From Victivallales bacterium (GTDB lineage: Bacteria > Verrucomicrobiota > Lentisphaeria > Victivallales > UBA1829): a stretch of DNA of 64,000 bases. Of this stretch, positions 44,262 to 63,354 are shown one piece after another. Each line of letters opens with the position of its first letter. Positions within the stretch are counted from its first letter, which is position 1. The stretch lies in the NCBI GenBank assembly GCA_016285345.1, contig JAEEQN010000002.1:18290-82289 (forward strand), written 5' to 3'. The notes below the pieces were generated by a model. The model did not search any database. It saw only the letters and a list, made by a program, of their open reading frames with translations, and was not told the DNA's origin. The position numbers were made by a program, and so were the translations under genes.

Positions 44262-45803
44262 ATGGAAATCTCTTTGAACAAAACCGAGCTGACCGGAGCG
44301 CTTCCTGCCTTGGGGAAACTTGTCTCCCGGACGTCCCTTATCAAGGCGTATCAGGCGATCCAAATCGAAGGTAGGGCGCACACGCTCTTCTTCCGTACCC
44401 GCAACGTCGTCGAAGGAATCGAATTCCGAATGGACGCCGATTTGGAAGATGACTTTCCTGCGGTTCTCGTAGAATTCGAGCAGTTCCGACTGGCCGTCCG
44501 CAACAGCAAGAAAAAAACGCTGGACCTGGAAGTCGAGAATGGCGAGGTCTTCATTGATGACGTCATGCTCGCACCTGTGAACGGACACTTTCCCGTGCCA
44601 GAGAACATCCCGGATCAGGATGCCACGGTTACGGAACTGCCCGCCGACACGCTGGCCGCGCTGTCACTGCTTGCCCCGCTCACAGACAAAGGGCAGGACA
44701 TTCGCAAGGTTCTCGGCGGAATCAACATCAGCCGGGACGGGCTCACCGCGACCAACGGCAAGGAGCTGTCGAATATCCCGCTCTCACTGGAGATGACCGG
44801 TAACGTCACGATTCCGTTCCCGCTCGCTCTGCTTGCCACAAAAGCATTCGGCGAATCCGGCAGGCTCACGACCTGGCAGAAGGACGAGGACACGCGCTTC
44901 GAGCTTTCGCTTGGTAACTGGACCTGGCGGGCGAAGGCGTACAAAGAGAACTACCCGAACTGGAAGCTCGTCGTGCCGGACCGGACAGAGGCCACGCACT
45001 ATGTGAGCTTCCAGGACGACCGCGCCGAACTGCTCCAGCGTTACCTAAAAAGCGTTCCTGACGACCCGCAGAACAACAACGGCATCAAGCTGAGCCGTCT
45101 CGAAGTCCCGGACAACCTTCATCTGGAAAGTTCGAACGGGATGCTGTTCAGCGTTCTCGCCGAATTCGACGATGCTTGGGGCGACCTGAGTTTCACCGTC
45201 AGGAAAGAATTCCTCCTGCATCTGCTGAACGCCGGACACCGGAAGATCGAGCTCAACGATGCCTACGGTCCGATTGTCGGAACTGGTGGCAATGGCGAAT
45301 ATATCGCCATGCCTATCATCACCAAAAGACCGCAAGCTCAAACCGAGCAGAAGCCGGAAGAGACCGCATCCAGCCAGACGGATACAAACGTTGCTGTTCA
45401 GGCTGAACAGACCGCACCTCAACCCATTCCCGAACAAACGGAATCCGTCACCGAGCAGATTCCGAATCACGAACAGGAAACATCCCCCACAAACAAAACC
45501 AATACCACACCCTCAACGAAGGAAAACACCACCATGATCGACACCAACACCATCACGCACGTCGTGTCTGCCCCCGTGCAGACGTCCGCCCAGAACAACA
45601 AACCCGAATCCAAGTTGAACCCGATGGACGAACTGATCATCAGCATCGAAGCGTTCAAGGCCAAGCTCAAGGCCATGGTCGATGAATCCACCGCCATGAG
45701 CCGTAAGGTCTGCGAGGTCGCCATCTCCCAGAGGCAGAAGGAACGCGAGTACGCGCGGACGAAGAAGACCATCGAAAAAATCCGGGTGGCCAGCGGCTTC
45801 TGA
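44262..45803 (+). CDS. Divergent DNA polymerase III beta sliding-clamp (DnaN)-like protein with a C-terminal extension of about 140 aa
   Basis: Collinear by eye with E. coli DnaN: ISLNKTELTGALPALGKLV / FTVEREHLLKPLQQVSG; HFPVPENIP / DFPNLDDW; LTATNGKEL / VATDGHRLA; ENYPNWKLVVP / GRFPDYRRVLP; GEYIAMPI / AAYVVMPM. This is followed by a Thr/Pro/Gln-rich linker and a coiled coil. Confidence 0.65.
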   Translation: MEISLNKTELTGALPALGKLVSRTSLIKAYQAIQIEGRAHTLFFRTRNVVEGIEFRMDADLEDDFPAVLVEFEQFRLAVRNSKKKTLDLEVENGEVFIDDVMLAPVNGHFPVPENIPDQDATVTELPADTLAALSLLAPLTDKGQDIRKVLGGINISRDGLTATNGKELSNIPLSLEMTGNVTIPFPLALLATKAFGESGRLTTWQKDEDTRFELSLGNWTWRAKAYKENYPNWKLVVPDRTEATHYVSFQDDRAELLQRYLKSVPDDPQNNNGIKLSRLEVPDNLHLESSNGMLFSVLAEFDDAWGDLSFTVRKEFLLHLLNAGHRKIELNDAYGPIVGTGGNGEYIAMPIITKRPQAQTEQKPEETASSQTDTNVAVQAEQTAPQPIPEQTESVTEQIPNHEQETSPTNKTNTTPSTKENTTMIDTNTITHVVSAPVQTSAQNNKPESKLNPMDELIISIEAFKAKLKAMVDESTAMSRKVCEVAISQRQKEREYARTKKTIEKIRVASGF

Positions 45804-45883
45804 ACCGTCATCTCCCGACATCACCCCAACACCGCCCTCGGCAGCTCACTGTTGCTGGGGGCAATCTTTGAAAGGAAACCATC

Positions 45884-46360
45884 ATGCTCAAACTCAATGC
45901 ATCCTACAGCAAGAAAATCCCCGCACAATCTGAGTATTCTTCTCAGTCCTACCACGCCTCAGTCGAGGTCGAGCTTCCTGATGGACTCACGACCGAACAA
46001 TTGAATGCGAAGATCCACGAGACATTCGCGCTCGTCCGCGACAGCGTGGAAACGGAACTGCACGGAAACACGGTTCAGCAGTCCGCTCCGATCCCCCAGA
46101 CCTCGAACGCGCAGCCCCAACCGGGTCTGTACGAAAACCAGCCGCAAAACGCGTCGAAGCCCATCTACGGCAAGAAGAACGGCACGACCTCGGACGCTCC
46201 CGCTTCTCCCAAGCAGGTCAAGTACCTCCTTGATCTCGCCCGCCAGTTCGGAATCAATCCGGAGCAAATCAAGGCCAAGTTCAACGTGCCAGCGCTCGAA
46301 AGTCTAACGAAGACGCAGTGCAGCCGTGCCATTGATGAGCTCAACGGAAAGGCGGCCTGA
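45884..46360 (+). CDS. Hypothetical island protein
   Basis: 158-aa ORF with an RBS. Gln/Pro-rich middle section. The C-terminal ASPKQVKYLLDLARQFGINPEQI...LTKTQCSRAIDEL looks like a small helical DNA/protein-binding module. No assignment made. Confidence 0.55.
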   Translation: MLKLNASYSKKIPAQSEYSSQSYHASVEVELPDGLTTEQLNAKIHETFALVRDSVETELHGNTVQQSAPIPQTSNAQPQPGLYENQPQNASKPIYGKKNGTTSDAPASPKQVKYLLDLARQFGINPEQIKAKFNVPALESLTKTQCSRAIDELNGKAA

Positions 46361-46361
46361 T

Positions 46362-47153
46362 ATGGAACGCACAATTGAAACTGTCCGCGAGGCACCGCAC
46401 TGGTCGTACAGCTCGTTGCAGCTTTTTTTGAACTGCCCCTTGCGTTACTACTTCCGGTACGTTGAAAAAGCTGAGGTGGAAAGGACAAGTGTAAGCCTGC
46501 CGTTCGGGCGGGCTTTCCACGCCGTCTTGAGCCTTCGCGCGGAGAAAGGCTCGGTTTACAGCGCCGAGGACGCGAAAGAAGACTTTGCCGTGTACTTCCG
46601 AGGCGAAACCGAGGTCAGCGAGAACCTGACGTACAAGCAGGATGAGGACTATTGGTTCTGGGAACAGCGCGGATGCGACATGCTGGAGGTCGCTTTTGCA
46701 GAATGGCCGGACGATTATTCGGTCAAATCTGTGGCGGAGGCGTTCAGCGTGGACGTTCCAGGACTGAGCAAGCCTCTCATCGGCGAGTTCGATCTCGTCG
46801 TTAATGACGGCGGGGACGAAACGATCTGCGATTTTAAAACGGCGTCGACGAAGTGGCCGACCGGGAAAGCTGACAGAGATCTGCAGGCGACTGCCTTCTC
46901 ATTCGCATATCAGAAGCGCCACGGCAAAATCCCGATCTTCCGCTTCGACGTCTTCACGAAGGCGAAGAATCCGGTTCACCAGCAACTCTACACGCTCAGG
47001 ACGAACGATGATTTCGACCGTTTCGTCTACCTCGCCAACAAAATTGAGGCGGCAGTGAACACCGGCATCTTCCTCCCGGTAGAATCGTGCATGAACTGTG
47101 CTGAATGCGCCTACGGGGACCGCTGCAAAGCGGTCCACAGAAAGGCGGCGTAA
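46362..47153 (+). CDS. PD-(D/E)XK nuclease of the Cas4/RecB(AddB) type with a Fe-S cysteine cluster
   Basis: N-terminal FLNCPLRYYF, FDLVV...ICDFKT (D..(D/E)xK core) and C-terminal CMNCAECAYGDRC. Start taken at ATG 46362, 1 nt after the upstream stop. Confidence 0.7.
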   Translation: MERTIETVREAPHWSYSSLQLFLNCPLRYYFRYVEKAEVERTSVSLPFGRAFHAVLSLRAEKGSVYSAEDAKEDFAVYFRGETEVSENLTYKQDEDYWFWEQRGCDMLEVAFAEWPDDYSVKSVAEAFSVDVPGLSKPLIGEFDLVVNDGGDETICDFKTASTKWPTGKADRDLQATAFSFAYQKRHGKIPIFRFDVFTKAKNPVHQQLYTLRTNDDFDRFVYLANKIEAAVNTGIFLPVESCMNCAECAYGDRCKAVHRKAA

Positions 47154-47154
47154 C

Positions 47155-47883
47155 ATGGGACTGATTATGCAGGAAGGCAAATACGTCAGCCGTGATGAAG
47201 TCGCGTGTATCGACACCCCAAGTTCGACTGAAACATGGAGACCTGTGCCGCACATTGATGTCATCGAGGCCGTAACCGAAGTTGTCAAGGCTCACCGCTG
47301 GGATATTGCGGACGAACGGTTCGGCCTCGCCAGCGAAGGACAGAAGATGTTCGGCGTCATGGAAATCTCCCGTTCATCTTCGCCTCAATGGCATCGCTGT
47401 ATCGGCATCCGCAACAGCCACGACAAAACCCTTGCCGTTGGACTGTCTGCCGGAATCGTCGTTCTTGTCTGCTCCAACCTCGCTTTCGGCGGAACCACCG
47501 TCATCAAGCGCAAGCACACCAGCCGGTTTGAACTGACCGATCTGATCGACCGTGCCGTGGCATCGCTGGAGGACGACTTCCTGATGACCGAAACCGTGTG
47601 CGAGGACCTGAAGGACATCCACCTCAAAAACGATGACGAAGCCCGGAGTAGCATTGTGCGTGCTGCCGAGCTCGGCGTCATCAATTCCTGTGACATTCTT
47701 CCGGTCTACCGTGAATTCAAGTCCCCGTCACATGCCGAGTTCAAGGAGCCAACACGATGGAGCCTGTTGAATGCATTTACGGAAACCGTGAAGAAGTACA
47801 CGCCTCAGCGTGTGGACCACAGCTATCTCGCCCTGAACCGGGCGTTCGGGCTGGACGGTCGCCCTGCCGCCATCTTCACCTGA
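47155..47883 (+). CDS. DUF932-family protein (phage/plasmid-associated)
   Basis: IGIRNSHDKTLAVGLSAGIVVLVCSNLAF and the overall length resemble DUF932/TIGR03299 proteins. Start at ATG 47155, just after the upstream TAA. Confidence 0.6.
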   Translation: MGLIMQEGKYVSRDEVACIDTPSSTETWRPVPHIDVIEAVTEVVKAHRWDIADERFGLASEGQKMFGVMEISRSSSPQWHRCIGIRNSHDKTLAVGLSAGIVVLVCSNLAFGGTTVIKRKHTSRFELTDLIDRAVASLEDDFLMTETVCEDLKDIHLKNDDEARSSIVRAAELGVINSCDILPVYREFKSPSHAEFKEPTRWSLLNAFTETVKKYTPQRVDHSYLALNRAFGLDGRPAAIFT

Positions 47884-47910
47884 CGGCGAGAACGAGCAAC
47901 CCGGCATGGT

Positions 47911-47951
47911 CGGAGGTCGAAGGAGTGCAAGCCTTCCCTCCGGTTTTTTTT
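47911..47951 (+). terminator. Strong rho-independent terminator ending the clamp/nuclease/DUF932 operon
   Basis: CGGAGG+GAAGG (47911-47923) pair with CCTTC+CCTCCG (47932-47942), followed by eight T. Confidence 0.75.
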
Positions 47952-48014
47952 ATATTGAGGTTGCGCGAGCTGTCAAATCGACAAAAAAAGTTTCAGAAAA
48001 AATCGTTGTTTCGC

Positions 48015-48043
48015 TTGATTTCTCCTGTCGACGATGTTAAATT
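48015..48043 (+). promoter_or_regulatory. Candidate sigma70 promoter with an extended -10
   Basis: TTGATT (48015-48020), 17 nt spacer, TGtTAAATT (48035-48043). It lies between a terminator and a 0.7 kb non-coding stretch. Confidence 0.5.
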
Positions 48044-48049
48044 ATTTCT

Positions 48050-48760
48050 CGGCTGAAACAAGAGCGGCATCCCCGTTACCACCAACATCGGGGCGAAGCG
48101 CTCCAGACAGCCACCACACATCGTGATCTAACGGCGGACACCAGACTGAACCAAGGGTCGGACGCACCGAACCTCCAGCAGTGATCGGGCGGGAACATCC
48201 TCTCAGCCGGGCAAACAGAACGCTTGGATCGCGGTCACAGACTACAGCACATAGGTGAACGTTCAGCGCCTGCACTCGCAGCCCAAGAACGTCAGCTGTT
48301 CCCCAGAAGGCATCGGACCAAACCTATACGGTCGGCGATGCGAACAGCGCATAGGCGATGTCAAAACCGGCCAAAGCGGTCAAGACATCGGGCTGTCCCC
48401 AGATAGCATCGGGCCACCTATTCGGCCGAAATGCTATACCTCCCCAACACGACGTACCAATGACCGCCACTGCGGCGAGTCAGCGGGCGCGTACTGTTGT
48501 CCACGGCAGCAAACGACCCCAAAGGCCGGATGCCAACCGTCCAGAGCGAAGCATTGGACCACCAATGGTCTCAGATGCTTGGGAACAGCAGGGCCCGGAA
48601 ACATCCCGGAGCGAACTCAGGCCAGAAGCCTGAGCAAGGTTCGGAGTGCAACCGGGGCAACAACGGGCACAGGCCGAAAGGTCTGGGCAAAGCACTCGGT
48701 GAAGACCTCGCAGAAGCGGAATCGGCATCGGGAACAAACCTATGAAACAGGAGTCTTACA
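48050..48760 (+). ncRNA. Candidate large structured non-coding RNA / long 5' leader of the Xis-like gene
   Basis: About 710 nt with no plausible ORF. The + strand is T-poor. Local hairpins are dense: CATTGG-ACCA-CCAATG at 48552-48567, CTCAGGC-CAGAA-GCCTGAG at 48616-48634, AGGCC-GAAA-GGTCT at 48671-48684. A duplicated hairpin module lies at 48310-48341 and 48405-48435. Confidence 0.3.
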
Positions 48761-49105
48761 ATGAGCAACATGCTCGAACATACGCCCCAAAACGGGGAGA
48801 CAACGGACGGCCTCAAATCGGTCGTTCCGCAGAACGTACTGGATATCATCCGGTGCGCCATCTCGCCGTACCCCGTCCCTTGGAGCAGAATCCGTAATGC
48901 TATCTTATCAGAAGAGGACGGCAATTCAAAGTCTATTCTGCCAGATGATCTCATGGACACCGCAGAGGCCATTAAGGCTCTGAAAATCTCGCGTGTCACA
49001 CTTCATCGTCGTGTGCGGGAAGGAACCATCCCCGTACACAAATTAGGACGCAGAAATCTCTATTCTCTGAAGGAGATAAGGGAAGTCCTGCAGGTGGAGA
49101 ACTAA
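48761..49105 (+). CDS. Excisionase/AlpA-family helix-turn-helix DNA-binding protein
   Basis: LMDTAEAIKALKISRVTLHRRVREGTIPVHKLGRRNLYSLKEIREVL matches the excisionase-family HTH pattern. AGGAG RBS at 48750-48754. Confidence 0.7.
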   Translation: MSNMLEHTPQNGETTDGLKSVVPQNVLDIIRCAISPYPVPWSRIRNAILSEEDGNSKSILPDDLMDTAEAIKALKISRVTLHRRVREGTIPVHKLGRRNLYSLKEIREVLQVEN

Positions 49106-49407
49106 CGACCATCATAGATCATCCCACAAGACCACGACAGGTCCCGCGATCTCGTGACAAATCGCTGGTAGGCAGCAAACCATGGTAGGCTCCTTCACTC
49201 CTGGCGAGCTGTCTCCGGTGAGCGTCCGGCTCTGCTAACTGAAAGCCCATTGCCGCTACATCGGCTCACACAGGCGAACAGCCCAGCGAACCCGACGATG
49301 CGTCACAACAAGGTCTCGACTTATGATCTACACGGCAGCCACCCCAACTGTCTCTGTGAGAATCGTTCCTGTCTGGCAAAGGACAACGAACACCGTCTGA
49401 AAATAAC

Positions 49408-51029
49408 ATGCAAAACAAAACAACCAATATCCATGCGCCGAGGGACAACTCCCACGGTGCGAACACCCCTGGCTCAGACCAGTCTTCGGACACCGAGAAT
49501 CGTACCAAGCTCTCGCGAGAAGTCCAGACCGACCGGATCAAGCAATTTCCCGAAGAATCGGGAATTGATACGGAACGGTGTAACAATCGCGTTGAGAATG
49601 ACACGACCGCTTCGGCGTACGACTGGCTGCCCAAGCCGATCAAATACAACTCCAAAACGCGCGAGGACCAGACCGACAGGTGTATTCTCCGCAATGGGAA
49701 ACAGGGAAGTGCGCCTGAAACACTGCCGAAGAAAGAGAGCGTGAAAACGGCAGCCAAGCACAACCCGCAAATCGGACAGCAGAATACCAGACAGACTGAC
49801 TCCTTCTGGACCGGTGGTTCTGAACGCTCCGGCAGTTCATCAAAGCAGAAACACAAACAGCGGTACTATGATCCGCTAATCGGAAATCATGTCATCCCGA
49901 TCATCTGGAATCATGACCTCCTGGAACGAATCGCGGACAGGGACAATCTCCTACAAGCAATCGCCTTCTTAGCCCGTCACAAGGAGAAAACTCCTGGTCC
50001 GGACCACAAGAGCGTGGAGGAGACCTGCATCATGCTTTCCGATCCGGAGAACCTGGAACGCCTTCGGCAACAGCTTCTTCAGGAAACATACCGACCCGGT
50101 AATGTCCAATCAACACAAATCCCCAAATCCAACGGAAAGACGCGGCCCTTAAAGATCGCGACTGTGATGGATCGCTGCGTACAGCGTGCAATCCTACAGC
50201 AGGTAATCACGAACCTACCGAAGAATCCGTGGTGCCCCTACTCCTTTGCATACCACCACGGGCAAAACACGACCGACGCAATCGAAGAAGTCAACAGGAT
50301 CCGGGAAGAGGGATACAAGTACGCTATCGAACTGGACCTCGAGTCCTTCTTCGACAATGTACGGCATACCAGACTCCTGAAGAAACTCCGTAGACATATC
50401 GCCGATAAGAGGGTAGTCCGAATGATCTCTCACATCATATCGGCCCTTATCATCAATAATCACGGGGAGCTGACGAAAAACCGCAAAGGCACACCGCAAG
50501 GCTTCGCGATTTCCTCATGGCTCGCAGCAGACCTATACCTGGATGAAATGGATCAGGAAATGACACGGCGCAACCTGCGCTTCGTCCGTTTCGCTGACGA
50601 CATTACTATATTCACCCGCTCGAAGAAGTCGGCCAAGCGTGTCAAGGCCAGAATCATCGAGTTCACTGAAAACGTAATGGAATGTCCGGTCAACAAGAAG
50701 AAAACCAGAATCGTCACCATTGAGAACGTCTCCCCTCCCTCTTGGGAGTCGAACTCAGGGATGGCCACTGGAGAATCCTTCGCGAAAAGGTCCGCAACCA
50801 CTGCGGCGAATACATGAAGGACATAGCCAAGTATAAGAAAACGAAGAATGACTACTACATCCGCAAGGCAGCCCAGAGCATGCAGGGATTCATCGGCGGT
50901 TACACCAGGATTCCTGACATCTGCCTGAGACAAATTCGGGCACTGAGATGCTGGTGCATGAACAGGTGGTGGGCCACGGGTGAACGCAAGCTGTTCTTCG
51001 CCCAGAAACGCTGGATGGTGCCAGACTAA
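49408..51029 (+). pseudogene. Group-II-intron-type reverse transcriptase (RT plus thumb/X, no endonuclease domain), interrupted by a frameshift near 50735
   Basis: RT0 LLERIADRDNLLQA; RT2 IPKSNGKTRPLKIATVMDRCVQRA; RT4 LDLESFFDNVRH; RT5 GTPQGFAISSWLAADLYL; FADD; KTRIV. The thumb continues in the -1 frame (50742-51029: LGVELRDGHWRI...MQGFIGGY). The first roughly 165 codons are low-complexity and probably not genuine protein. Confidence 0.75.
49457..51029 (+). mobile_element. Group II intron-like retroelement remnant: 5' GUGCG, domain-I-like RNA and an intron-encoded RT; no domain V/VI recognised
   Basis: GTGCG at 49457-49461. GATACGGAAC (49567), GCGTTGAG (49589) and GTACGACTG (49617) occur in the same order and roughly the same spacing as GAUACGGGAAC/GCGAUGAG/GUACGACUG in Ll.LtrB domain I, as I recall that sequence. 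Confidence 0.4.
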
Positions 51030-51091
51030 CCACGGGACGCAAACGCTACTCTGCAAAGATGAACTGAATTACCGCTCTATTAACTGAGCCT

Positions 51092-51135
51092 GAGCAGCGC
51101 TTCAGGTGTGAATGACCTGGAGTGCTGCTCTTTTT
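51092..51135 (+). terminator. Strong rho-independent terminator after the RT
   Basis: GAGCAGCGCTTCAGG (51092-51106) pairs over 15 bp (two G-U) with CCTGGAGTGCTGCTC (51116-51130), followed by TTTTT. Confidence 0.75.
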
Positions 51136-51219
51136 GATTTCGCTGACGGCACTCGTCTTTGGCTTCCGAAGAACAATTAACCTCAACCCAAGCAACCGAA
51201 ATGCCGTTTTTAACCTCAG

Positions 51220-51243
51220 ATCGTGGCAAAATCGTGGAAAAGG
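51220..51243 (-). repeat. Inverted copies of the arm-type motif (ATCGTGGCAAAATCGTGGAAAAGG)
   Basis: The reverse complement reads CCTTTTCCACGATTTTGCCACGAT, related to the direct copies at 51405-51444 and 37792-37813. Confidence 0.5.
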
Positions 51244-51404
51244 TCCCCATTTCCACAATTGTCGTGGCGAATGATCGCTGCTGTTTTCAGCACGATGGGA
51301 CGTACCAGACAGGAACCGGAGGCATATCGCGGAAGGCTCGGTTTTCCACGGACATACATGAATGCTTGAGCAGGAAGGGCGAAAAATCTGAGCTCAAAAG
51401 CCTG

Positions 51405-51444
51405 CCACGATTTTTCCACGATTTTTCCACGATTTGTGTCACGA
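51405..51444 (+). repeat. Three tandem arm-type motifs (CCACGATTTTT x2, CCACGATTTGTGTCACGA) next to the right att
   Basis: ccacgatttttccacgatttttccacgatttgtgtcacga lies 54 nt from the direct repeat. Confidence 0.55.
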
Positions 51445-51497
51445 AACATAAAAAAACACCATGTTTCACGATGTATGAAAAATGGTGATTTAAGCTC

Positions 51498-51553
51498 AAA
51501 AAGTGGTGCACCCGGCGGGGCTCGAACCCACCACCTACTGCTCCGGAGGCAGT
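51498..51553 (-). repeat. att direct repeat, right copy (inside the intact tRNA-Arg)
   Basis: Identical to 37696-37751. Confidence 0.9.
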
Positions 51554-51580
51554 CGCTCTATCCAAATGAGCTACGGGTGC
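51504..51580 (-). tRNA. tRNA-Arg (anticodon CCG)
   Basis: The reverse complement folds as a 77-nt cloverleaf: GCACCCG/TA/GCTC-ATTTGGATA-GAGC/G/ACTGC-CTCCGGA-GCAGT/AGGTG/GTGGG-TTCGAGC-CCCGC/CGGGTGC/A/CCA. Anticodon loop C-U-CCG-G-A. CCA is encoded. Confidence 0.9.
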
Positions 51581-51675: not shown

Positions 51676-53874
51676 TCAGAAGATGTTCGGGGCTGTGACG
51701 GTTGCAGTGACGTCGATCTTTTCGATGTAGTACCAGTCCTGGCTGGGGAGGTAGTTCACGCAATAGATGATACGGCGGCCGTTCTCGATGCGCGAGATCG
51801 TGCCGTATTTGGTCTCGGTGAACTGTTCGAAGAGGCCGGCGTCGTCGAAGCTGATGGTCAGGGAGTCTTCCTTGTTCGTTTCCGTGGCTCCGGCGAACCG
51901 GGCTCCGGTGGAGACCAGGATCAGCCCTTTGTTGTCCAGCAGGGTCTTTTCCAGGACGTTGTTCCCGACGTTGCCGTTCGTCTTCAGGTCGTGAATGATC
52001 GTGTTCAGGTGCAGGTCGAATCCGGCGACGCCGAGGAAATTGCCGGCGGTATCCAGCATGGGGACGTTGCAGGAGAGCAGATAGCCCGCGGCGGCGGTAT
52101 TGCCGGGGTAGGGTTTGCTCCAGGCGAATTCGCCGCTGCTGGACTGGGCGGTCTTGTACCAGTGGCGGCTGCGCGGATCGTAGCTTGATGCATAGACGCC
52201 GCTGCCGGGGTACACGACGTACTGGCCGTCGGGGAATCCGAAGAGCAGCAGATGAAGCGGGATGCCGTTGAGGCGGAGATATTCGTTCTTTTCGGCGTCG
52301 GAGGCGTCCGCGAGCTTTTCCGGCAGGCGTTCGCTGAAGACGCCCATGATCGTATCCTTCAGATGCGCCAGGATGTGCAGGCGGCGTTTCTCGACGGCGG
52401 TCAGTTCCTCTCCGTGGATGGTTTTGTGGGCGAAGTGCGAGAAATCGATCTTGCGGTGGTATACGGAGGAATACAGGAGCGAAGCGGGGGGATTGTTCGT
52501 GTCGCGGAGCGCGGAAACGGACATCATGCAGTCGGGGTTCGTTTCTCCGTCGTCCGGGTCGGTCTCGTAGAGGAAGACGAACTCCGAGGTGATGGACGAG
52601 AGGAACTGGGCGTTGCGCGCGATGTTCGTTTCGATGTAGTCGGCGCACGCGGTGGACTGGACCTGCGCGGTGGCGAGCTGCCGCGCGTATGCGTGAACCG
52701 CGTTAATCTGGCTGACGCGGCGGTAGGCTGTCACACCGATCGTGAGGAGCAGCATGAGGATGCAGACGACGGCGAACGCCAGCGAGGCGCGTTTGTGGTG
52801 GACGGCGAACGCGGAGATGCGCCCGAAAAGGTGATATGGGTTCGCGGAGGTCTCCTCGCCGCCCATGTAGCGGCGGATGTCGGCGCCCAGGTCGCGGACG
52901 TTCTGGTAGCGTTCGTCGCGGTTGTACGCGGTCGCCTTCGCGATGATCGCCTTCAGGTCGGGGTCGATCCTGAACCCGTATTTGTGGCGCGTTTCGGCGA
53001 TGCGGCCTTCGCGGATCATGGAGACGACCTCGGCGCTGGTGCGCGCCATGTAGGCTTCGCGGAGCGTGACGACCTCGAACAGAATGAGCCCGAGCGCGTA
53101 GATGTCCGCGCGCTGGTCGGTGTGTTCTCCCTGGATGGCTTCGGGCGACAGGAAACGCGGCGTGCCGGAGATCGTGCTTGGTTTTTCCCATGTGGCGGGG
53201 TCGTAACCGGGTTCTTCGATCTGGCGGGCGATGCCCCAGTCCATGATGTAGGTCTCGCGGAACTCGCCGATGAGGATGTTTTCCGGCTTGAGGTCGCAAT
53301 GCATGATGTTGCGGCTGTGGGCGTAGTCGAGGGCGTCGCATACGCGGAGCATGACCTCGAGGCGGAACATCAGGGACTTGCGTTCGTCGAACTGTCCGAT
53401 GCCGGCCTTGCGGTATTCGTAGTCGAGCTGGTCCAGATAGTCTTTCAGCGTCTTGCCGTCGACGAGCTTCATCACGAGGTGGAGCCCGTCCTTGTCGTCC
53501 GAGTTCAGCGAATAGATCGGGATGATCGCGGGGTGGCTGAGCTGGGCAGTGACGCGCGCCTCCTGGATGAACTGGCCGCGCGTGAACTGGTCCTCGGGCT
53601 GCGATTTGAGCGTCTTGATCGCCACGGGACGGCGGAGGTTCAGGTCGAGCCCCTCGCGGATGATGCCCTGTCCGCCTTCCGCGAAGACTTTGCCCTGCCG
53701 GTATTCCGCGTCGATGGGCTCCAGCTTGACGTCCAGCCGGTCGTCGAACCGGACGGTGGAGTGGTCCACGTGCGTGAACGTGACGGTGGTGTCCTGTTCG
53801 CGTCCGAGGTTCTTCAGCCCGACCCTGATCGAGGTTACGGTATGGACTTTGCCTGATGTCGCGCCCCGGCTCAT
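51676..53874 (-). CDS. Ser/Thr protein kinase (Hanks type) with a TM segment and a C-terminal extracytoplasmic Cache domain
   Basis: VAIKTLK (catalytic Lys), HCDLKPENILI, MDWGIA, GTPRFLSPEA. One TM (LAFAVVCILMLLLTIGVTAY). YDPRSRHWYKTA is the Cache hallmark. Confidence 0.85.
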   Translation of the reverse strand: MSRGATSGKVHTVTSIRVGLKNLGREQDTTVTFTHVDHSTVRFDDRLDVKLEPIDAEYRQGKVFAEGGQGIIREGLDLNLRRPVAIKTLKSQPEDQFTRGQFIQEARVTAQLSHPAIIPIYSLNSDDKDGLHLVMKLVDGKTLKDYLDQLDYEYRKAGIGQFDERKSLMFRLEVMLRVCDALDYAHSRNIMHCDLKPENILIGEFRETYIMDWGIARQIEEPGYDPATWEKPSTISGTPRFLSPEAIQGEHTDQRADIYALGLILFEVVTLREAYMARTSAEVVSMIREGRIAETRHKYGFRIDPDLKAIIAKATAYNRDERYQNVRDLGADIRRYMGGEETSANPYHLFGRISAFAVHHKRASLAFAVVCILMLLLTIGVTAYRRVSQINAVHAYARQLATAQVQSTACADYIETNIARNAQFLSSITSEFVFLYETDPDDGETNPDCMMSVSALRDTNNPPASLLYSSVYHRKIDFSHFAHKTIHGEELTAVEKRRLHILAHLKDTIMGVFSERLPEKLADASDAEKNEYLRLNGIPLHLLLFGFPDGQYVVYPGSGVYASSYDPRSRHWYKTAQSSSGEFAWSKPYPGNTAAAGYLLSCNVPMLDTAGNFLGVAGFDLHLNTIIHDLKTNGNVGNNVLEKTLLDNKGLILVSTGARFAGATETNKEDSLTISFDDAGLFEQFTETKYGTISRIENGRRIIYCVNYLPSQDWYYIEKIDVTATVTAPNIF

Positions 53875-56384
53875 TGCGGACCGCCTTTCTGTTTCAAGTC
53901 AAGACTCCGCATGAAATCCCTCAGCCGTATCTTTTCCACATACCATTCCTGCATGGCCGGGACGTCCGCGAAGCAGTAGACGAACGAGCCGCCCGGTTCC
54001 TTGCGGATGACGGCGCCGTAATCCTTTCCCTCCATCCATTCGAGGAGCCAGGGATCGGGATAAGCGCCTGTTTCGAGGTTGACCGTCGGACGCTTGTCCG
54101 GGCCGTTGTTGATGCGCTCCATTTTGACATCGCCGTCTTTCGCGAGGAAGTACTGCGCCTCCATGCCGAGCGGGAGGTTCTGGGCTTCGCTCAGGATCTG
54201 GTCGATGTAGCGCCCGGAAACGAGGAACACCGCGGCTCCGAGCGGGGTTATGGGCGGCCCCAGCCGGATCGAGACAGGCAGGACGACATGCTCCGATTCG
54301 GGAGCCTCGTTTTCCAGCCGGAAGGGGAGATGCCAGACAGGCCGGTCGAAGCGCTGGGGAAGGGTCATGCCGTACCATTCCGACCCGTGGCCGGGAACGG
54401 ACTCGGTTTTCACTGTGAAGGGATAAAGCAGGGACGAGCCGTCGACCAGCAGTATCTGGATGCGGTAGATCGGGCTGACGCTTTGCGTGAGGCGGTGGAT
54501 CTGCCTGTCCGTGCTTTCCTTGGTGACATAGGCGTTCAGCGGGGCCTGCAGCATGTAGCGGAAGAGCGTGGGCAGGAGCATGCCGAGGCATTTGAACTCT
54601 TTTTTCTGCATGTCCTCCGCGCGCCCGGCCTCCATTTTGCGGAAACTGACGGAGTCGCCGTAGTAGGGGGAGTATTCGGTCTGGATGCCGTCGTTTCCGG
54701 AGACAGCCGCGTCGTCCGGGGGCGCGAGATATTTGATGCCGGCGTCGCGGTTTCCTCCGTTCTCGGCGAGCAGGAACTCGGTTTCGAACTTGATGGATTC
54801 GAGCATGTCGTTGAATTTTTCCGCCTGAAGATTGAACTGGTGGGCGGTTTTCCGGCATGCGGACTGCGCCTTGCCGAGCACATGGTCGTCGAGGTAGGAG
54901 GTCTGCGCCATGCGGACGTCGTTGAAGATGTTGTAGGCGAAGAGCGCGCCGACCAGGCAGATCAGCGTCAGAAATCCGAAGAACATGCGGCGGTGGTGTG
55001 CCCGGATGAGCTTGGCGAAGCGTTTCGAGAGGCTGATCTTCCGCACGGTGACTTCCTCAGAATGCATGAAACGGCGGAGGTCTTCGGCCAGTGCGTTCAC
55101 GGATTCATAGCGGTCCTCCGGATTCGGCGCGATGGCTTTCCGGATGATCGCCCGCATGTCCGGGTCGATCGCGCCGCCGAAACGGTGTTCGATCGCCGGC
55201 TCGACGCCGTTGCGGAGATGCTCCAGAACTTCCGGGTTGGGTTCGTCATGGAACGGCGGATGGAGCGTAACGATCTCGTAGAGCAGCATGCCGAGGGCAT
55301 AGATGTCGGACTTGATATTCGGTTCCGCGCCGGAAATGATTTCGGGCGCGATGAACCGGGGATCGGTCATCTCGGGCGGTTTGCGTTTCGCCTGCGCTTC
55401 CTTGTCGTGCGAAGCGAGGAAAATGGCGAACCCCCAGCCCTTGATGTAGACCTCGTGGTATTCGCCGATCAGGATGTTCTGGGGATGAAGATTGGCATGC
55501 ACGACGTTCCGGCTGTGGGCGTAGAGGATGCCGTCCGTGATGCCGAGGACGAGTTCGAGGCGGAAATTCAGCGCGGCCGCTTCCTCCGCCGCGCGGAATC
55601 CGGCGCTGCGGTAGTGCGACGTGATGCGTTCCATGTATTTGCGGAGGTCCGTGCCGTCGGTCATCTTCACGGCGGAATGCAGGCCGCCGCGGTAGTCGCG
55701 GTTGACGCTGTAGACAGGCAGGACGGACGGGTGGTCGAGCTGGGCGGAGATCTCCGCCTCGGCGATGAAGCTGGCGCGTTCGTTCGGATCCAGAAGCCTT
55801 TCGTCGCGCAGCGAGTAGATCGCCACCTCGCGTTCGAGGCCGAGGTCCTCGCCGATGGAGACCACGTACCGGCCGCCTTCGGCGAGCTTGCGTTCGATCT
55901 CGAAACGGTCCTCCAGATCGGTCAGGTGCGCCTGAGTTTCCTCCTGATGTCCGACTTCGGCGCGTTCGCGGTGGTGGTCGTGCCCCTCGATCTCCGCGCC
56001 GACGTCGCGCTTGCCCGTGCCGCTCCCGGTCAAGGAAGACAGAATCGAGGTCGGCTTGTGCAGGATGTTATGAATCTTCGTGCGGGTTTCCCTGATAACG
56101 GACTGCGTGTCCTCGGAATTGACCCGCGTGATGCCGTTTTCCGGGCTCAGGACGATGGTCCGGTCGATCGATTCTTCGCTCATGACCATGGTGCGGTCGG
56201 GCGAATCTTCGCTCATGACCATGGTGCGGTCGATCTGATCCGTTTCCATGACCATCGTGCGGTCGGGAGTTCCCTGCGCAACGGACGATCCGGCGGGCTG
56301 AGCGCCGGAAGTCTTGCCGTTCGGTTCGGCGGCGGGATCAGGTCTGAGTTCGTCCGTCACGGGGTGCTTCTCCGGTGAGTTCAA
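53871..56384 (-). CDS. Paralogous receptor pseudokinase (kinase fold with catalytic residues replaced), TM segment and Cache-like domain
   Basis: Aligns to the downstream kinase, but VAIYSLR replaces VAIKTLK, HANLHPQNILI replaces HCDLKPENILI, and KGWGFA replaces MDWGIA. The N-terminus has four DRT[MI]V[ML] repeats. 4-nt overlap with the kinase gene. Confidence 0.8.
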   Translation of the reverse strand: MNSPEKHPVTDELRPDPAAEPNGKTSGAQPAGSSVAQGTPDRTMVMETDQIDRTMVMSEDSPDRTMVMSEESIDRTIVLSPENGITRVNSEDTQSVIRETRTKIHNILHKPTSILSSLTGSGTGKRDVGAEIEGHDHHRERAEVGHQEETQAHLTDLEDRFEIERKLAEGGRYVVSIGEDLGLEREVAIYSLRDERLLDPNERASFIAEAEISAQLDHPSVLPVYSVNRDYRGGLHSAVKMTDGTDLRKYMERITSHYRSAGFRAAEEAAALNFRLELVLGITDGILYAHSRNVVHANLHPQNILIGEYHEVYIKGWGFAIFLASHDKEAQAKRKPPEMTDPRFIAPEIISGAEPNIKSDIYALGMLLYEIVTLHPPFHDEPNPEVLEHLRNGVEPAIEHRFGGAIDPDMRAIIRKAIAPNPEDRYESVNALAEDLRRFMHSEEVTVRKISLSKRFAKLIRAHHRRMFFGFLTLICLVGALFAYNIFNDVRMAQTSYLDDHVLGKAQSACRKTAHQFNLQAEKFNDMLESIKFETEFLLAENGGNRDAGIKYLAPPDDAAVSGNDGIQTEYSPYYGDSVSFRKMEAGRAEDMQKKEFKCLGMLLPTLFRYMLQAPLNAYVTKESTDRQIHRLTQSVSPIYRIQILLVDGSSLLYPFTVKTESVPGHGSEWYGMTLPQRFDRPVWHLPFRLENEAPESEHVVLPVSIRLGPPITPLGAAVFLVSGRYIDQILSEAQNLPLGMEAQYFLAKDGDVKMERINNGPDKRPTVNLETGAYPDPWLLEWMEGKDYGAVIRKEPGGSFVYCFADVPAMQEWYVEKIRLRDFMRSLDLKQKGGPQ

Positions 56385-56385
56385 A

Positions 56386-57042
56386 TCACTTTGTGAGTCC
56401 GATGGCCTGCGCGAGGATGACGGTCATCTTGTCGTCGAGCTTGAAGACCTTGCGGACGCCCTTCTCGTCATACATGCCGAGGGAGACGGTGCCGAGCCCC
56501 TTCGAGGCGCAGTAGAGGTAGACGTCCTGCGAGGCTTCGCCCACGTGGATCGCTGGGAACTTGATGTCGTTCGGGAACTTGGTGGAATCGCTGGCGTAAA
56601 CGAGGATCGCGGCGGAGTTCTTCGCCATGTTTTTGTTCATGATGAGGTCCGCGCGGAAGTCGCCCGCGTCGATGCGCACGAGCTTGTTCGCCTTCGCGTC
56701 ATAGTGGTAGGCCGCGCCCGGCAGCGCCACATAGACTTCGAGGTCCTGCTTGTTCATCGCGGTCGGGATCGTGCGCTTGCCGTCGGGACGGTTCACGCCG
56801 TTGGCGGCGTAGAGGATTTCGGAAAGCGTGGCGGCGTCGAGTTCGCCGGGCTTGTAGTCGCGGATCGTCTTGCGTTCCGCGAGCGCCTGCATGAGCGGCA
56901 TGCCGCCGGTCTTGGCGGGGGCGGGGAGGGCGACCGTTTCGGCTTTCGGGTCGATCTTCGCGGAAGCGGCATCCTGCGCGGGGCAGACAATTACGGCGAG
57001 GAGAGCGAGCGAGGCGGCGGCGAGAATGGTGAGATGTTTCAT
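56386..57042 (-). CDS. Secreted nitroreductase-family protein
   Basis: Start at ATG 57042 (AAGGAG RBS); the listed longer ORF runs into panB. Signal peptide MKHLTILAAASLALLAVIVCPA. LAERKTIRDY and YAANGVNRP are motifs typical of the nitroreductase/SagB-like fold. Confidence 0.65.
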   Translation of the reverse strand: MKHLTILAAASLALLAVIVCPAQDAASAKIDPKAETVALPAPAKTGGMPLMQALAERKTIRDYKPGELDAATLSEILYAANGVNRPDGKRTIPTAMNKQDLEVYVALPGAAYHYDAKANKLVRIDAGDFRADLIMNKNMAKNSAAILVYASDSTKFPNDIKFPAIHVGEASQDVYLYCASKGLGTVSLGMYDEKGVRKVFKLDDKMTVILAQAIGLTK

Positions 57043-57089
57043 GGGGAAGGCTCCTTTCTTGCTGGAGTATTTAGGTTGAAACGGGTGGT

Positions 57090-57899
57090 TCAGAAACTGT
57101 TTTCCTGAGTTGGGAAGGTCTTTCCTTTGACTTCGGCGATGTAGGCGGCGATGGCCTCCTGCGCCATGGTCCCGACGTGGCAGAACCGTCTGGCATGCTT
57201 CGGCAGGAATCCTTCGGTGTAGCCGAGCAGATCGCTGACGACCTGCACCTGGCCGTCGCAGTCCGGGCCGGCGCCGATCCCGATGGTCGGCACGCCGACG
57301 GAAGCTGTGATCTTCGCGGCGAGTTCGGCGGGGACGCATTCCAGCACCATGGAGAAGACGCCGGCGTCCTCAAGCTCTTTGGCGCGGGCGATGAGTTCGG
57401 CGGCCTCTTCTTCGCCGCGTCCCTGCACCCGGTAGCCGCCGGAGGTCTTCACGGACTGCGGCAGCAGGCCGATGTGCCCCTGCACGGGAATCCCGGCCTC
57501 GACCAGCGCGCGGACGGCGGGCAGGGTGGACGGCGTGCATTCGAGCTTGATCGCGTCGCATCCGGCTTCCTGCATGAACCGCGCAGCCTCGCGGAGAGTG
57601 TTCTCCACGCCGAGGTGGCAGGTCATGAACGGCATGTCGCCGACGATGAAGGTGTTCGGGGCGCCGCGCCGGACGCACTGCGCGTGGTGGACCATTACGT
57701 CCATGGTGGCGGGAATGGTGTCGGTATAGCCGAGGGTATTCATGGAAAGCGAGTCGCCCACGAGGATGAAGTCGATCCCGGCGGCCTCGGCGAACGCCGC
57801 GGTCGGCGCGTCGTAGGCGGTGATCATCACGATCTTCTCGCCGTCCTGCTTCATTTTCCGGAACGACCGGACTGTTTTCTTTACGATGCTGTCCGCCAT
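57090..57899 (-). CDS. panB: 3-methyl-2-oxobutanoate hydroxymethyltransferase
   Basis: KIVMITAYDAPTAAFAEAAGIDFILVGDSLSMNTLGY...VGDMPF...GHIGLLPQS...ECVP...PTIGIGAG are canonical PanB motifs. Start at ATG 57899. Confidence 0.9.
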   Translation of the reverse strand: MADSIVKKTVRSFRKMKQDGEKIVMITAYDAPTAAFAEAAGIDFILVGDSLSMNTLGYTDTIPATMDVMVHHAQCVRRGAPNTFIVGDMPFMTCHLGVENTLREAARFMQEAGCDAIKLECTPSTLPAVRALVEAGIPVQGHIGLLPQSVKTSGGYRVQGRGEEEAAELIARAKELEDAGVFSMVLECVPAELAAKITASVGVPTIGIGAGPDCDGQVQVVSDLLGYTEGFLPKHARRFCHVGTMAQEAIAAYIAEVKGKTFPTQENSF

Positions 57900-60967: not shown

Positions 60968-63256
60968 TTATTCTCTCGGAAGAAGGAGTTTCCGGACTTT
61001 CTCCAGATTCGTTTTTCCGAATTCATCGTCCGGCAGTATGATCAGCAGATGATTGCACTGCGCCTCCGCCTGAAGATATTTCCGGTCGGCAATGCTCTTT
61101 TCAATGACATGGTGCATGCAGTCGCGCCACAGCTCCACAATATCCTCGCGGTAGTCCACTTCATGGCGGGGAAAGTGCAGAATACTCACAGCATCTTCAA
61201 AACGCCCCGCTTCGGACAGCCTTTTCGCATAGATAAATGCCGGGAGCAGAGATTCCTTTTCAAGCTCAAATGCCGTCTTTGCGGCCTCCAGAGCCTTCTG
61301 CTCTTCGCCTTTTGCATGGTAGATGCCGGAAAGATTGGCATAAACCAGAGACGGGTTGCGGTAGGTTTTCAGGATCGCGTCGTATTTCGCCCTGGCTTCA
61401 TCAAGCCGGTCATGTCCGCACAGGCTGTTCGCCGCATAAAACGTGAAATCGGGTGCGTCATCAGGAGTCGAGGCAAGCAGATCAAGAGCGTCTTTTTCCT
61501 TTGATTTGTCTCCGGTCTGAAGCATTGCCGCCGCGCGGAAAAAAACACCGAATTGCTCCAGTTTTCCGTCCTTCGAGGCATCCAGCCTGTCGGCCATGGA
61601 TACCAGATCCTCTGTTCGCTTGTTATTGACACAGAACAGGAAATACTGCCTCAGCAGCTCCGGATCGAATTCGGAGAAAACCACCAGTTCCCGGAAGATA
61701 TCCGCGGCTTCTTCATGCTGCCCGGTCTGATCCAGTGCCAGCATGTTGAGGATTCTGATTTCGCGATCAGGCTGCCGGTCCGCTGTCTTTTCGGTATCCA
61801 GCACCTGTTCGATGATCGGCAGCGCTTTTTCCGCCTTTCCGCGAAAGATCAGGAACTCCGCGGCAATACGCTGCAACAGGGCATCGTCGGGGAAATACTC
61901 CAGGGCACTCAGCAGGTATTCCTCTTTCACAACTTCTTTTTGATACTGATCCAGGAGGATGATCTCCGTAAGCAGTCTGTTTCCATGGAGATAGACGGAC
62001 AGGACCTTTGCCAGGTCAGCCATCCGCGAGGGGTTTTTCCGGTTTTCCGTCTTCTTCATCTCTTCCTCAATATACCCTAGGCAGATGAACAGCGCCCTGT
62101 CGTGCAGATCATAGAACGGCGGACTGGAGAATATCTCCTGTGCAACGGATCGGATTTCATCGAACGATCTGTGCGACATAGCCACACGCAGACGGATGAA
62201 GCGTGAAAGCGGGGAATCAATGCGTTTGCCGGTTCTGCGGACTTCGGCGGCCAGCTTCTTCTCATCGTTTTCGAGATACGCGATCAGAATTACACAATAA
62301 TCAGCCATAAAAGGTAGAACGCCCGGTTTCCGGCGCAGTTTCTTTTCCAGCTCTTTGAGTTCGTCCAGTTTCCCCTCGAAGACACAACTCTCCGCATATA
62401 TGAGATAAAGATCAATATCATCGACGTTTTTCAGGTACGGCTCCAGGATATTGATCGTTTCGGCAAAATTGCCTTTTGAAAAGTAATAATCCGCCAGGAT
62501 CGCCGATCCGGCGATATGATTGGCTTTCACAGCCTGTTTCAGAAGCCTCTCTGTTTTTTTGTCGTTATCAGGATCGTCGCCTCCGTTTTTTTCCATGAGG
62601 CGGAGAGCGCAATACAATGCCTCGAATTGGACCATCGGATCTTCCGACTGCATGGCGCTGTTCAAAAAAGCATTGCGTTCATTGTCGTTCATGGCATTCT
62701 GCTCAGCCAGAAACTCCGCCATTCGTCCCAGATCGTCCTTGTGAAATGCCTCGGGATTCTTCCTGATAGACTCCATGTAGGCGTCATCCCCATTTTTGGG
62801 ATAGCCGGATCGGTAGGAGGAAATCACAAACAGGTAAAGCTCCCGGTCTGTGAATTCGTTGCCCAGGATGGCTTTTCGGCTCAGAAGGTTGTGCAAGACA
62901 GCATAGTTCGCGGTTCTGAGAGCATTGTTCAGCATGTTGTCGAGGTATTCCTGATTCTGCGGATTCAAGGAACTGGCCGCCTGCCACATCTGAGCTTCCA
63001 TTTCCGCGTTGCCGGATTCGCGATAGATGTTCGCGAGTGCGGCATATCCCGCTTCGAAATCCGGATCCGTTTGTAGATACTGAAGCAGGAGACGTTCCGC
63101 CGACGCATAATCACCTTTTTCATACGCGGTCATCGATTCATGGCGAAGACGGATACGCCGTCTTATTTTTATACCGAAATAACCGCATCCCAGAAGACCT
63201 GCGAAAAAGACTAGTCCCAGCAGGATGAATGAGATCTTTCTCCAGTTCAAAGTCAT
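60968..63256 (-). CDS. TPR-repeat protein with an N-terminal membrane anchor
   Basis: 762 aa. TM ISFILLGLVFFAGLLGCGYFGI. Repeated 34-aa helical-pair patterns (YASAERLLLQYLQTDPDFEAGYAALANIY and similar). Confidence 0.7.
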   Translation of the reverse strand: MTLNWRKISFILLGLVFFAGLLGCGYFGIKIRRRIRLRHESMTAYEKGDYASAERLLLQYLQTDPDFEAGYAALANIYRESGNAEMEAQMWQAASSLNPQNQEYLDNMLNNALRTANYAVLHNLLSRKAILGNEFTDRELYLFVISSYRSGYPKNGDDAYMESIRKNPEAFHKDDLGRMAEFLAEQNAMNDNERNAFLNSAMQSEDPMVQFEALYCALRLMEKNGGDDPDNDKKTERLLKQAVKANHIAGSAILADYYFSKGNFAETINILEPYLKNVDDIDLYLIYAESCVFEGKLDELKELEKKLRRKPGVLPFMADYCVILIAYLENDEKKLAAEVRRTGKRIDSPLSRFIRLRVAMSHRSFDEIRSVAQEIFSSPPFYDLHDRALFICLGYIEEEMKKTENRKNPSRMADLAKVLSVYLHGNRLLTEIILLDQYQKEVVKEEYLLSALEYFPDDALLQRIAAEFLIFRGKAEKALPIIEQVLDTEKTADRQPDREIRILNMLALDQTGQHEEAADIFRELVVFSEFDPELLRQYFLFCVNNKRTEDLVSMADRLDASKDGKLEQFGVFFRAAAMLQTGDKSKEKDALDLLASTPDDAPDFTFYAANSLCGHDRLDEARAKYDAILKTYRNPSLVYANLSGIYHAKGEEQKALEAAKTAFELEKESLLPAFIYAKRLSEAGRFEDAVSILHFPRHEVDYREDIVELWRDCMHHVIEKSIADRKYLQAEAQCNHLLIILPDDEFGKTNLEKVRKLLLPRE

Positions 63257-63354
63257 TTCTCCTTATCTTTTACAAACCTTCTGTTTAATCATCACGGACC
63301 TCTTTTTCCGGCATTTTATATGCATAAAGCTTTTTGATCCTGCGGTTTTCTGTT

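Follow-up and report, generated by a model that had tools for sequence, protein, structure and literature searches.

The switching of bacterial Hanks-type receptor kinases by their extracellular ligands is poorly understood, and few bacterial pseudokinases have an assigned function. The present analysis deals with two overlapping genes, here called pse (receptor pseudokinase) and act (active receptor Ser/Thr kinase), which lie on the minus strand of a 64,000-nucleotide stretch of DNA, hereafter the window, from a Victivallales bacterium of the Lentisphaeria (assembly GCA_016285345.1, contig JAEEQN010000002.1, positions 18,290 to 82,289). The two products are paralogues, one of which keeps the catalytic residues and an amino-acid-binding motif and the other of which has lost both. 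The pair is well supported as an observation and is open as a mechanism.

Closest described systems

Ser/Thr kinases that sense amino acids through a dCache_1 domain have been described (PMC8915833), and act shares their architecture and all six residues of their motif, its nearest solved relatives being amino-acid chemoreceptor domains. Those kinases were described as single proteins, whereas act is permanently paired with a degenerate paralogue and has a ligand that is predicted. On the side of pse, a comparable case is found in Mycobacterium tuberculosis, where PknB phosphorylates the pseudokinase domain of MviN and the FHA protein FhaA afterwards binds to it. The role ascribed to the MviN (ActPs3) pseudokinase is that of a scaffold that is phosphorylated and serves an active Hanks kinase (PMC12599244). 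Like MviN, pse is a membrane-anchored bacterial pseudokinase devoid of all three catalytic motifs, for which phosphorylation is proposed here. In MviN, by contrast, a lipid II flippase-like protein carries the pseudokinase, which has no Cache domain and is not a paralogue encoded next to its kinase.

By analogy, MviN can be regarded as the nearest bacterial case in mechanism, and the HER2/HER3 and GABA-B receptors as the nearest in logic. In HER2/HER3 and in GABA-B (GB1/GB2), paralogous receptors divide the labour and signalling needs the heteromer; HER3 has lost catalysis, also with Asn in place of the HRD Asp, and GB2 has lost ligand binding. The dead kinase of HER2/HER3 is the ligand-binding subunit, whereas pse appears to have lost both functions in one subunit. 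Apart from the kinase and Cache folds, nothing relates these receptors evolutionarily to the pse/act pair, for which the heteromer is a proposal. Another bacterial sensor-kinase paralogue that has lost catalysis and controls an active kinase is the pseudo-histidine-kinase DivL of Caulobacter, which regulates CckA by contact. It differs from pse in belonging to another kinase superfamily, in not being adjacent to its partner and in having no degenerate extracellular sensor.

Seven bacterial pseudokinase families (ActPs1-3, GLW, CP1, DYD and DLHK) were listed in a 2025 review, which makes no mention of Cache domains, Lentisphaerota or a neighbouring active paralogue for any of them (PMC12599244). 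Among bacterial pseudokinases, pse falls into the class whose three catalytic motifs are all degraded. The GLW family carries GLW at the HRD position and Leu or Trp at beta3, whereas pse has H-A-N and Tyr; CP1 proteins have no membrane helix and are fused to a COG3899 ATPase domain, whereas pse has a membrane helix and no such fusion. Judged by the family descriptions given in that review (PMC12599244), and not by profiles, pse fits none of GLW, CP1 and ActPs3. Within the library of papers searched, none mentions both pseudokinase and dCache, and a search on Lentisphaerae kinases returned nothing relevant.

A tandem pair of paralogous receptor kinase genes

The two genes are arranged head to tail, with pse (53871..56360) upstream and act (51676..53874, 732 aa) downstream. 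The open reading frame (ORF) of pse is open as far as a TTG at 56384 (53871-56384, 837 aa from the TTG), the likely start being the GTG at 56360, which gives 829 aa and is indicated by the alignment of orthologues and by a 99%-identical protein of 829 aa (P0001). The sequence at the junction is CAATGA, in which the stop codon of pse (TGA) and the start codon of act (ATG) have 4 nt in common (ATGA, 53871..53874). BLASTP aligns the two products at 28% identity over 694 residues (E 2e-80), with a paralogy that spans kinase domain, membrane helix and ectodomain. A Kyte-Doolittle scan found one hydrophobic segment in each protein, corresponding to single transmembrane (TM) helices at 54924..54989 in pse, where it is flanked by a very conserved juxtamembrane segment and a stalk helix, and at 52720..52788 in act. 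An earlier note on this DNA, made from the sequence alone, had described two paralogous genes overlapping by 4 nt and a TM segment kept in the upstream product, a description confirmed by the ORFs, the junction, the BLASTP alignment and the hydrophobicity scan.

A Shine-Dalgarno-like sequence, GAAAGGCGG (53881..53889, minus strand), lies within the 3' end of pse, 7 nt 5' of the act ATG. Either GAAAGGAGG or GAAAGGCGG is kept at the equivalent position in most of 10 related loci, a GAAAGG(A/C)GG site being present in most of the 10 full-length close loci. In 9 of these 10 the overlap is also the 4-nt ATGA (read by eye from the junction sequence for L009), L003 having an overlap of 1 nt; among divergent pairs it measures 1 nt in L013, 8 nt in L018 and 4 nt in each of L019, L020, L021 and L022. 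With an overlap and a ribosome-binding site (RBS) inside pse, both conserved in relatives, the pair has the sequence features of a translationally coupled operon, and the overlapping stop and start would favour a linked production of the two proteins. The codons for the C-terminal K-G-G of pse read AAAGG(A/C)GG, the likely RBS of act (window 53874-53890, and the same place in L001-L012). Since these C-terminal residues are encoded by the likely RBS, protein sequence and translation signal are constrained together.

An intact and a degenerate kinase domain

The kinase domain of act (52906..53697) matches the Pfam Pkinase model (PF00069) over its full length with 136.6 bits against a cut-off of 31.7 (E 1.3e-39). 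Its residues K87, D194, K196, N199 and D212 are invariant in 61/61 orthologues, and it possesses the beta3 Lys, HRD Asp, catalytic-loop Asn and DFG Asp that characterise an active Hanks-type Ser/Thr kinase. The motifs quoted in the earlier note (VAIK, HCDLKPEN, DWG and GTPRF in act; VAIY, HANLHPQN and GWG in pse) are all present, and the statement that the downstream product keeps every Hanks catalytic residue holds across the orthologues.

The pseudokinase domain of pse (55086..55901) matches the same model at positions 2-259 of 263 (86.8 bits, E 2e-24), and this whole-model match, together with the conservation of the domain, agrees with the claim that the upstream product keeps the kinase fold. 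Its beta3 Lys is replaced by Tyr (VAIY), its HRD Asp by Asn (HANLHPQN) and its DFG Asp by Gly (GWG). In a HMMER alignment with M. tuberculosis PknB, these substitutions fall exactly at PknB K40, D138 and D156, the aligned pairs being VAIY/VAVK, HANLHPQN/HRDVKPAN and GWG/DFG. The conservation of these positions was read from an alignment of 208 sequences, comprising 87 of the pse family and 61 of the act family (the window copy counted in each), 57 distant relatives, the L013 pair and a PctA fragment. Within the pse family the beta3 position is Tyr in 87/87, the HRD position Asn in 85/87 and the DFG position Gly in 87/87, the canonical residues being invariant in act and the distant relatives. 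The catalytic-loop Lys, equally invariant in act and the distant relatives, is His in the window pse and His, Asn, Leu, Gln or Val across its family; the third Gly of the Gly-rich loop is Tyr in pse, Gly in act and Gly or Ala in the distant relatives. What pse retains are the alphaC Glu, the catalytic-loop Asn, the APE Glu, the alphaF Asp and the alphaH-alphaI Arg.

With all three catalytic motifs degraded, pse answers to the sequence definition of a pseudokinase, and we infer that it has no catalytic activity. Misalignment of the catalytic residues, which the earlier note had proposed to check against kinase models, is ruled out by the PknB and 208-sequence alignments, and the loss of the Lys, the catalytic Asp and the metal-binding Asp that it had reported from one sequence extends to 85-87 of the 87 orthologues. 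Judged from these alignments, the substitutions are real and ancient. Two pse orthologues, P0047 and P0058, have HAD in place of HAN, the HRD Asp being present, with the beta3 Tyr and GWG unchanged; this could be a reversion or a retained polymorphism.

Two Cache ectodomains, one with an intact pocket

The act ectodomain (51679..52710) contains a dCache_1 domain (PF02743) at residues 537-702 that scores 50.0 bits against a gathering cut-off of 45 (E 3.7e-13). The PDB sequences closest to it are those of PctA (3.8e-9), CtaA from Pseudomonas fluorescens (6pxy), PctB, Mlp24, Mlp37 and human CACHD1. The amino-acid-binding motif of dCache_1 domains was defined by Gumerov et al. 2022 (PMC8915833), and in a residue-by-residue alignment Y565, R570, W572, Y573, Y589 and D620 of act (52015..52182) correspond in order to Y121, R126, W128, Y129, Y144 and D173 of PctA (SSYDPRSRHWY...KPY...GFDL in act, GYDPRSRPWY...EPY...GGDL in PctA). 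The R126A exchange reduces the affinity of PctA 61-fold, binding is abolished by D173A and function is lost with D173N; Ser/Thr kinases were found to carry the motif as well, and one of them, from Enhygromyxa salina, was confirmed by calorimetry (PMC8915833). All six residues are invariant in 61/61 act orthologues, which places this ectodomain in the amino-acid-binding dCache_1AA class, and act is very probably an amino-acid sensor.

The pse ectodomain (53874..54911) gave no Pfam Cache or dCache_1 match in the window copy at E up to 1, and its Cache nature rests on a fold search, on homology with act and on Pfam dCache_1 matches (best E 2.7e-8) in 5 of the 15 pse ectodomains scanned. An AlphaFold2 (AF2) model of the window ectodomain, built with 15 sequences, reached a mean predicted local distance difference test score (pLDDT) of 73 and a predicted TM-score (pTM) of 0.77. 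The 50 Foldseek matches listed for it in the PDB, among them Mlp24, PctA/B/C/D, Tlp3 and alpha2delta-1, were all tandem-PAS/dCache-type ligand-binding or sensor domains (50/50, probability 1.00, E down to 3.9e-6), with modest TM-scores of 0.25-0.50. The domain is therefore of dCache fold by structure comparison, with a sequence that does not attain the gathering score of PF02743.

The amino-acid motif itself is lost in pse. In the 208-sequence alignment the family differs at four of the six positions, W128 and Y129 alone being retained: the Y121 position has no Tyr (a gap, or Val in the window copy), R126 is replaced in 87/87 by Thr, Ser, Ala, Asn or Ile, Y144 is mostly Ala or Val, and D173 is replaced in 87/87, by Leu in 86 and otherwise by Met. 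None of the divergent pse lineages has kept the motif either, the residues across the lineages being L, Q, V, V, L and V at D173 and S/T, E, G, P, A and S at R126. That each lineage has its own replacements argues for decay of the pocket and not for a new specificity. Most likely, pse is also dead as an amino-acid sensor, and sensing probably sits in the active partner. The earlier note had given both products Cache-type sensor domains and had seen in pse a dead kinase with its own ligand-binding domain. A Cache-type ectodomain is indeed found in both, but the second idea is not supported, at least for amino acids, pse having lost the ligand-anchoring R126 and D173 in every orthologue and act keeping all six motif residues. 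The interpretation given in the note is thereby supported in part.

Selection on the two genes

Ratios of nonsynonymous to synonymous substitution (dN/dS), calculated by the Nei-Gojobori method over 11 genomes, were 0.31 for pse as a whole (N-terminus 0.49, kinase 0.23, juxtamembrane and TM 0.22, ectodomain 0.33) and 0.20 for act (N-terminus 0.22, kinase 0.11, juxtamembrane and TM 0.23, ectodomain 0.25). Both genes are under purifying selection, pse evolving faster but being clearly maintained. A decaying pseudogene is ruled out by the intact ORF in about 90 orthologues and by dN/dS values of 0.23-0.33 in the structured domains. Within pse, conservation peaks in the juxtamembrane segment and the stalk helix (0.92 each), the N-lobe (0.91) and the pseudo-catalytic loop, and among the structured parts it is lowest in the Cache lobes (0.74). 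For act, the highest conservation is that of the catalytic core, and a segment of its ligand pocket counts among the six best-conserved stretches.

Conservation of the pair as a unit

A scan of one genome per species yielded 12 close loci, all from rumen Lentisphaeria/Victivallales metagenome-assembled genomes or rumen bins, and act directly follows pse in the 11 of them that extend downstream (11/11). Two further metagenome contigs carry the same block of panB, nitroreductase, pse and act. In addition, six divergent pairs were found, in which pse is about 29-34% and act 44-51% identical to the window copies: L013 (pse copy P0239), L018 (P0240), L019 (P0346), L020 (P0347), L021, whose contig holds 39 pse residues that match the C-terminus of the L019 copy exactly, and L022, whose pse copy is an uncatalogued protein of 804 aa. 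Altogether, pse is followed by act in 19/19 loci with downstream DNA, including five lineages in which pse is only about 30% identical, and the pair proved to be conserved as a unit in relatives, a survey that the earlier note had put forward as a check of its reading.

The divergent pse copies are degenerate in both kinase and pocket, with replacement residues that differ by lineage. Across the pse lineages these are Y, H, H, S and R at beta3, N, N, N, N and S at the HRD position, and G, S, N, G and G at the DFG position, and the catalytic-loop Asn is lost in three of the five divergent lineages (P0347, P0240 and P0239). A profile search covered 1.84 billion cluster representatives, and among the best 107 full-length matches, which were checked, all three catalytic residues are replaced in 5 clusters only. 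All 5 of these triple-degenerate clusters also lack R126 and D173, and all 5 lie directly upstream of an active partner. Some 100 other matches have the full catalytic set, most of them with the YRWYYD motif; a further match, P0470, was flagged for an alignment gap at beta3 alone. The more distant relatives P0192 and P0210 are single genes.

Proposed origin by duplication

In a neighbour-joining (NJ) tree, the pse sequences from all lineages tested are monophyletic in 200/200 bootstraps, the five paired active partners included (window clade, L013dn, L018dn, P0184 and P0186) form one clade, and P0192 and P0210, the two singletons with a checked gene context, fall outside it. A gene with SIS and CBS domains, KpsF/GutQ-like by domain content, lies immediately upstream of five of the six divergent pairs (L013:2480-3460, L018:4996-5985, L019:4014-5000, L020:2906-3889 and L022:587-1570; the L021 contig is too short) and also upstream of the singleton in L015 (L015:4996-5979). 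In the window clade the pair is preceded by panB and nitroreductase genes instead. A common neighbour of pairs and singleton fits with a tandem copy inserted before the original gene, and suggests an origin of the pair by tandem duplication inside this Lentisphaerota clade.

The ancestor would have been a Lentisphaerota receptor Ser/Thr kinase with N-terminal Thr motifs, a Hanks kinase domain, a membrane helix and a dCache_1 domain that binds amino acids, probably acting as a homodimer before the duplication. The act copy would have kept pocket and catalysis and lost the canonical N-terminal D-[RK]-T-hydrophobic repeats. The pse copy, conversely, would have lost catalysis and the ligand anchors, kept and multiplied the Thr repeats, and also kept the conserved kinase N-lobe, juxtamembrane segment, membrane helix and stalk helix.

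N-terminal Thr repeats of pse

Four repeats with a period of 11 residues, three DRTMVM and one DRTIVL, each with a conserved Thr, are encoded at 56148..56264 (residues 41, 52, 63 and 74 of the 837-aa ORF). T43, T65 and T76 are invariant in 15 diverse pse orthologues. Three to four D-R-T-M-V-M repeats are typical of pse, and none of its divergent lineages is without the motif. A pattern of the form [KRH]-T-[ILMV]-x-[ILMVF] occurs 3.6 times per pse protein against 0.11 in shuffled sequences; it is found in none of 60 act orthologues (shuffled expectation 0.08) and at least once in 68% of the 28 single-gene relatives scored (shuffled 0.06). In the full-length AF2 model, which is poor overall, residues 1-90 of pse have a pLDDT of 25-37 and almost no secondary structure, which is compatible with a disordered N-terminus. 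Acidic residues before the Thr and a hydrophobic one at +3 fit the reported substrate preference of mycobacterial Hanks kinases. Moreover, many FHA domains prefer pT-x-x-hydrophobic, a pattern that the repeats also fit and that provides a lead. The repeats are candidate phospho-acceptor or docking motifs.

Proposed mechanism and alternative explanations

The reading that we consider somewhat probable is that tandem duplication and complementary loss have produced an asymmetric heteromeric receptor, with sensing and phosphorylation left to act and with pse as its allosteric or scaffold partner. The two products would assemble as an asymmetric heteromer whose amino-acid ligand is bound by the act ectodomain alone. 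The signal would travel via the paired stalk and membrane helices to the act kinase, the only active kinase of the complex, for which pse would be the dimer partner in allosteric activation. The Thr repeats of pse, which may be disordered, would probably be trans-phosphorylated and form a docking platform for downstream readers. Formation of the heteromer, the direction of regulation and phosphorylation of the repeats are points that we infer. A more specific version, which is held tentatively, makes the pair an obligate asymmetric heterodimer derived from a once homodimeric receptor, with pse as both activator and phospho-Thr output platform that recruits readers.

Several observations weigh against the heteromeric receptor. 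The active partner of one divergent pair (L022:3995-6247) has Ser at the D173 position (YRWFYS), and in that lineage ligand specificity may have shifted or binding may have been lost. The full-length AF2 model of pse, built with 15 sequences, is poor (pLDDT 56, pTM 0.39, N-lobe below 50), and because of this the retention of the fold in the N-lobe rests on the Pfam match and on conservation, not on the model. Moreover, act keeps a conserved Thr-rich N-terminus (DTTVTF), which means that the split of N-terminal function between the copies is not clean. A scan of 15 neighbouring ORFs revealed neither an FHA-domain nor a PP2C gene, and one for promoters and terminators gave matches at chance level. 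Finally, the NJ tree sets the pse clade outside all active Cache kinases and not beside the act clade, a position that we attribute to long-branch attraction and because of which the place of the duplication is taken from synteny and not from the tree.

The main rival to activation is inhibition. As a decoy, pse would be a negative regulator that forms heterodimers unable to trans-activate and thereby damps amino-acid signalling or sets its threshold. This draws on the same heteromer evidence, and a partner with neither ligand site nor catalysis does resemble a dominant-negative subunit; a pure decoy, however, needs neither the three to four conserved Thr repeats, expanded relative to the single-gene relatives, nor a coupled synthesis of the kind suggested by the conserved overlap. 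The decoy is considered unlikely; the present evidence does not separate activation from inhibition.

Less likely still is an independent pse, merely co-transcribed with act, that would work as a membrane scaffold or as sensor of a ligand other than an amino acid. Its ectodomain is under purifying selection (dN/dS 0.33), and the fixation of Leu at D173 in 86/87 of the window clade could mark a new hydrophobic pocket. Against such a role, the pocket positions vary across the divergent lineages in their D173 and R126 replacements, the Cache lobes are the least conserved structured part, and an adjacency with overlap in 19/19 loci over deep divergence exceeds the needs of co-transcription. An independent ligand sensor in particular is made unlikely by pocket residues that are lost and not conserved.

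It is improbable that pse has kept a non-canonical enzymatic or nucleotide-binding activity, as WNK, CASK, SelO or SidJ have. The three canonical residues are missing together, and their replacements differ by lineage, whereas a conserved new chemistry should conserve its residues; the high conservation of the pseudo-catalytic loop, the Gly-rich-loop Arg-Tyr and the catalytic-loop Asn, which would speak for such activity, is seen in the window clade, the Asn being lost in three of five divergent lineages. The Asp at the HRD position of P0047 and P0058 is also in its favour. Pseudokinases with all three motifs degraded are nearly always without ATP binding (PMC12599244).

An anti-phage defence kinase system is very improbable: the pair adjoins a tRNA gene and an integrated mobile element and the PADLOC models PD-T4-6 and MAD6 match both kinase domains, but the matches are confined to the generic kinase domain, membership in PD-T4-6, MAD6 or BREX PglW is rejected by scores far below the cut-offs (NCBIfam MAD6 86-92 bits against 460, PglW 65 against 990) and by the lack of partner genes nearby, core synteny (panB-nitroreductase or SIS/CBS) is conserved in all lineages without the patchy, island-linked distribution typical of defence genes, and an extracellular amino-acid sensor is ill-suited to sensing phage inside the cell.

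Genomic neighbourhood

Upstream of pse, the nitroreductase ORF (56386-57339) encodes 317 aa, the orthologous genes 218-220 aa; its Pfam match begins at residue 154, and the true start is probably internal. Its stop (56386-56388) precedes the TTG of pse by 2 nt and the likely GTG by 25 nt, a gap short enough that pse may be co-transcribed with panB and nitroreductase.

The lower-coordinate neighbours of the pair belong to an apparent integrated mobile element (window 38023-51580) beside tRNA-Arg(CCG) (51504-51580, minus strand), just downstream of act. It includes genes for a phage-type integrase (38023-39357), a PD-(D/E)XK nuclease (46326-47153), a DUF932 protein (47098-47883), an HTH_17 excisionase-like protein (48761-49105) and, at 49408-50817, a reverse transcriptase, perhaps that of a group II intron or of a retron. 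The GC content falls to 0.48-0.50 at 40-44 kb. At the corresponding place, the related locus L016 carries other cargo genes (KAP NTPase, AAA_13 and a methylase S subunit), and the site beside tRNA-Arg(CCG) may be an integration hot spot. GC content is also 0.45-0.54 at window 6001-14000 and 62001-64000, against about 0.60-0.65 elsewhere.

Significance

The pair provides a natural dissection of a receptor kinase, with ligand site and catalysis on one chain and the N-lobe, juxtamembrane segment, stalk and Thr-repeat tail on the other, and would be a clean example of subfunctionalisation following tandem duplication. The likely class of ligand, amino acids, can be predicted from a published and experimentally validated motif. 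To the seven bacterial pseudokinase families listed so far, pse adds an unannotated one from gut and rumen Lentisphaerota. The pair also opens questions about dimer asymmetry in bacterial receptor kinases, about the pseudokinase as activator and about the site of output phosphorylation. If the more specific version of the proposed mechanism is true, pse and act would represent HER2/HER3-type signalling in a bacterium, and act would be the first receptor kinase of bacteria to write its output on a dedicated pseudokinase subunit.

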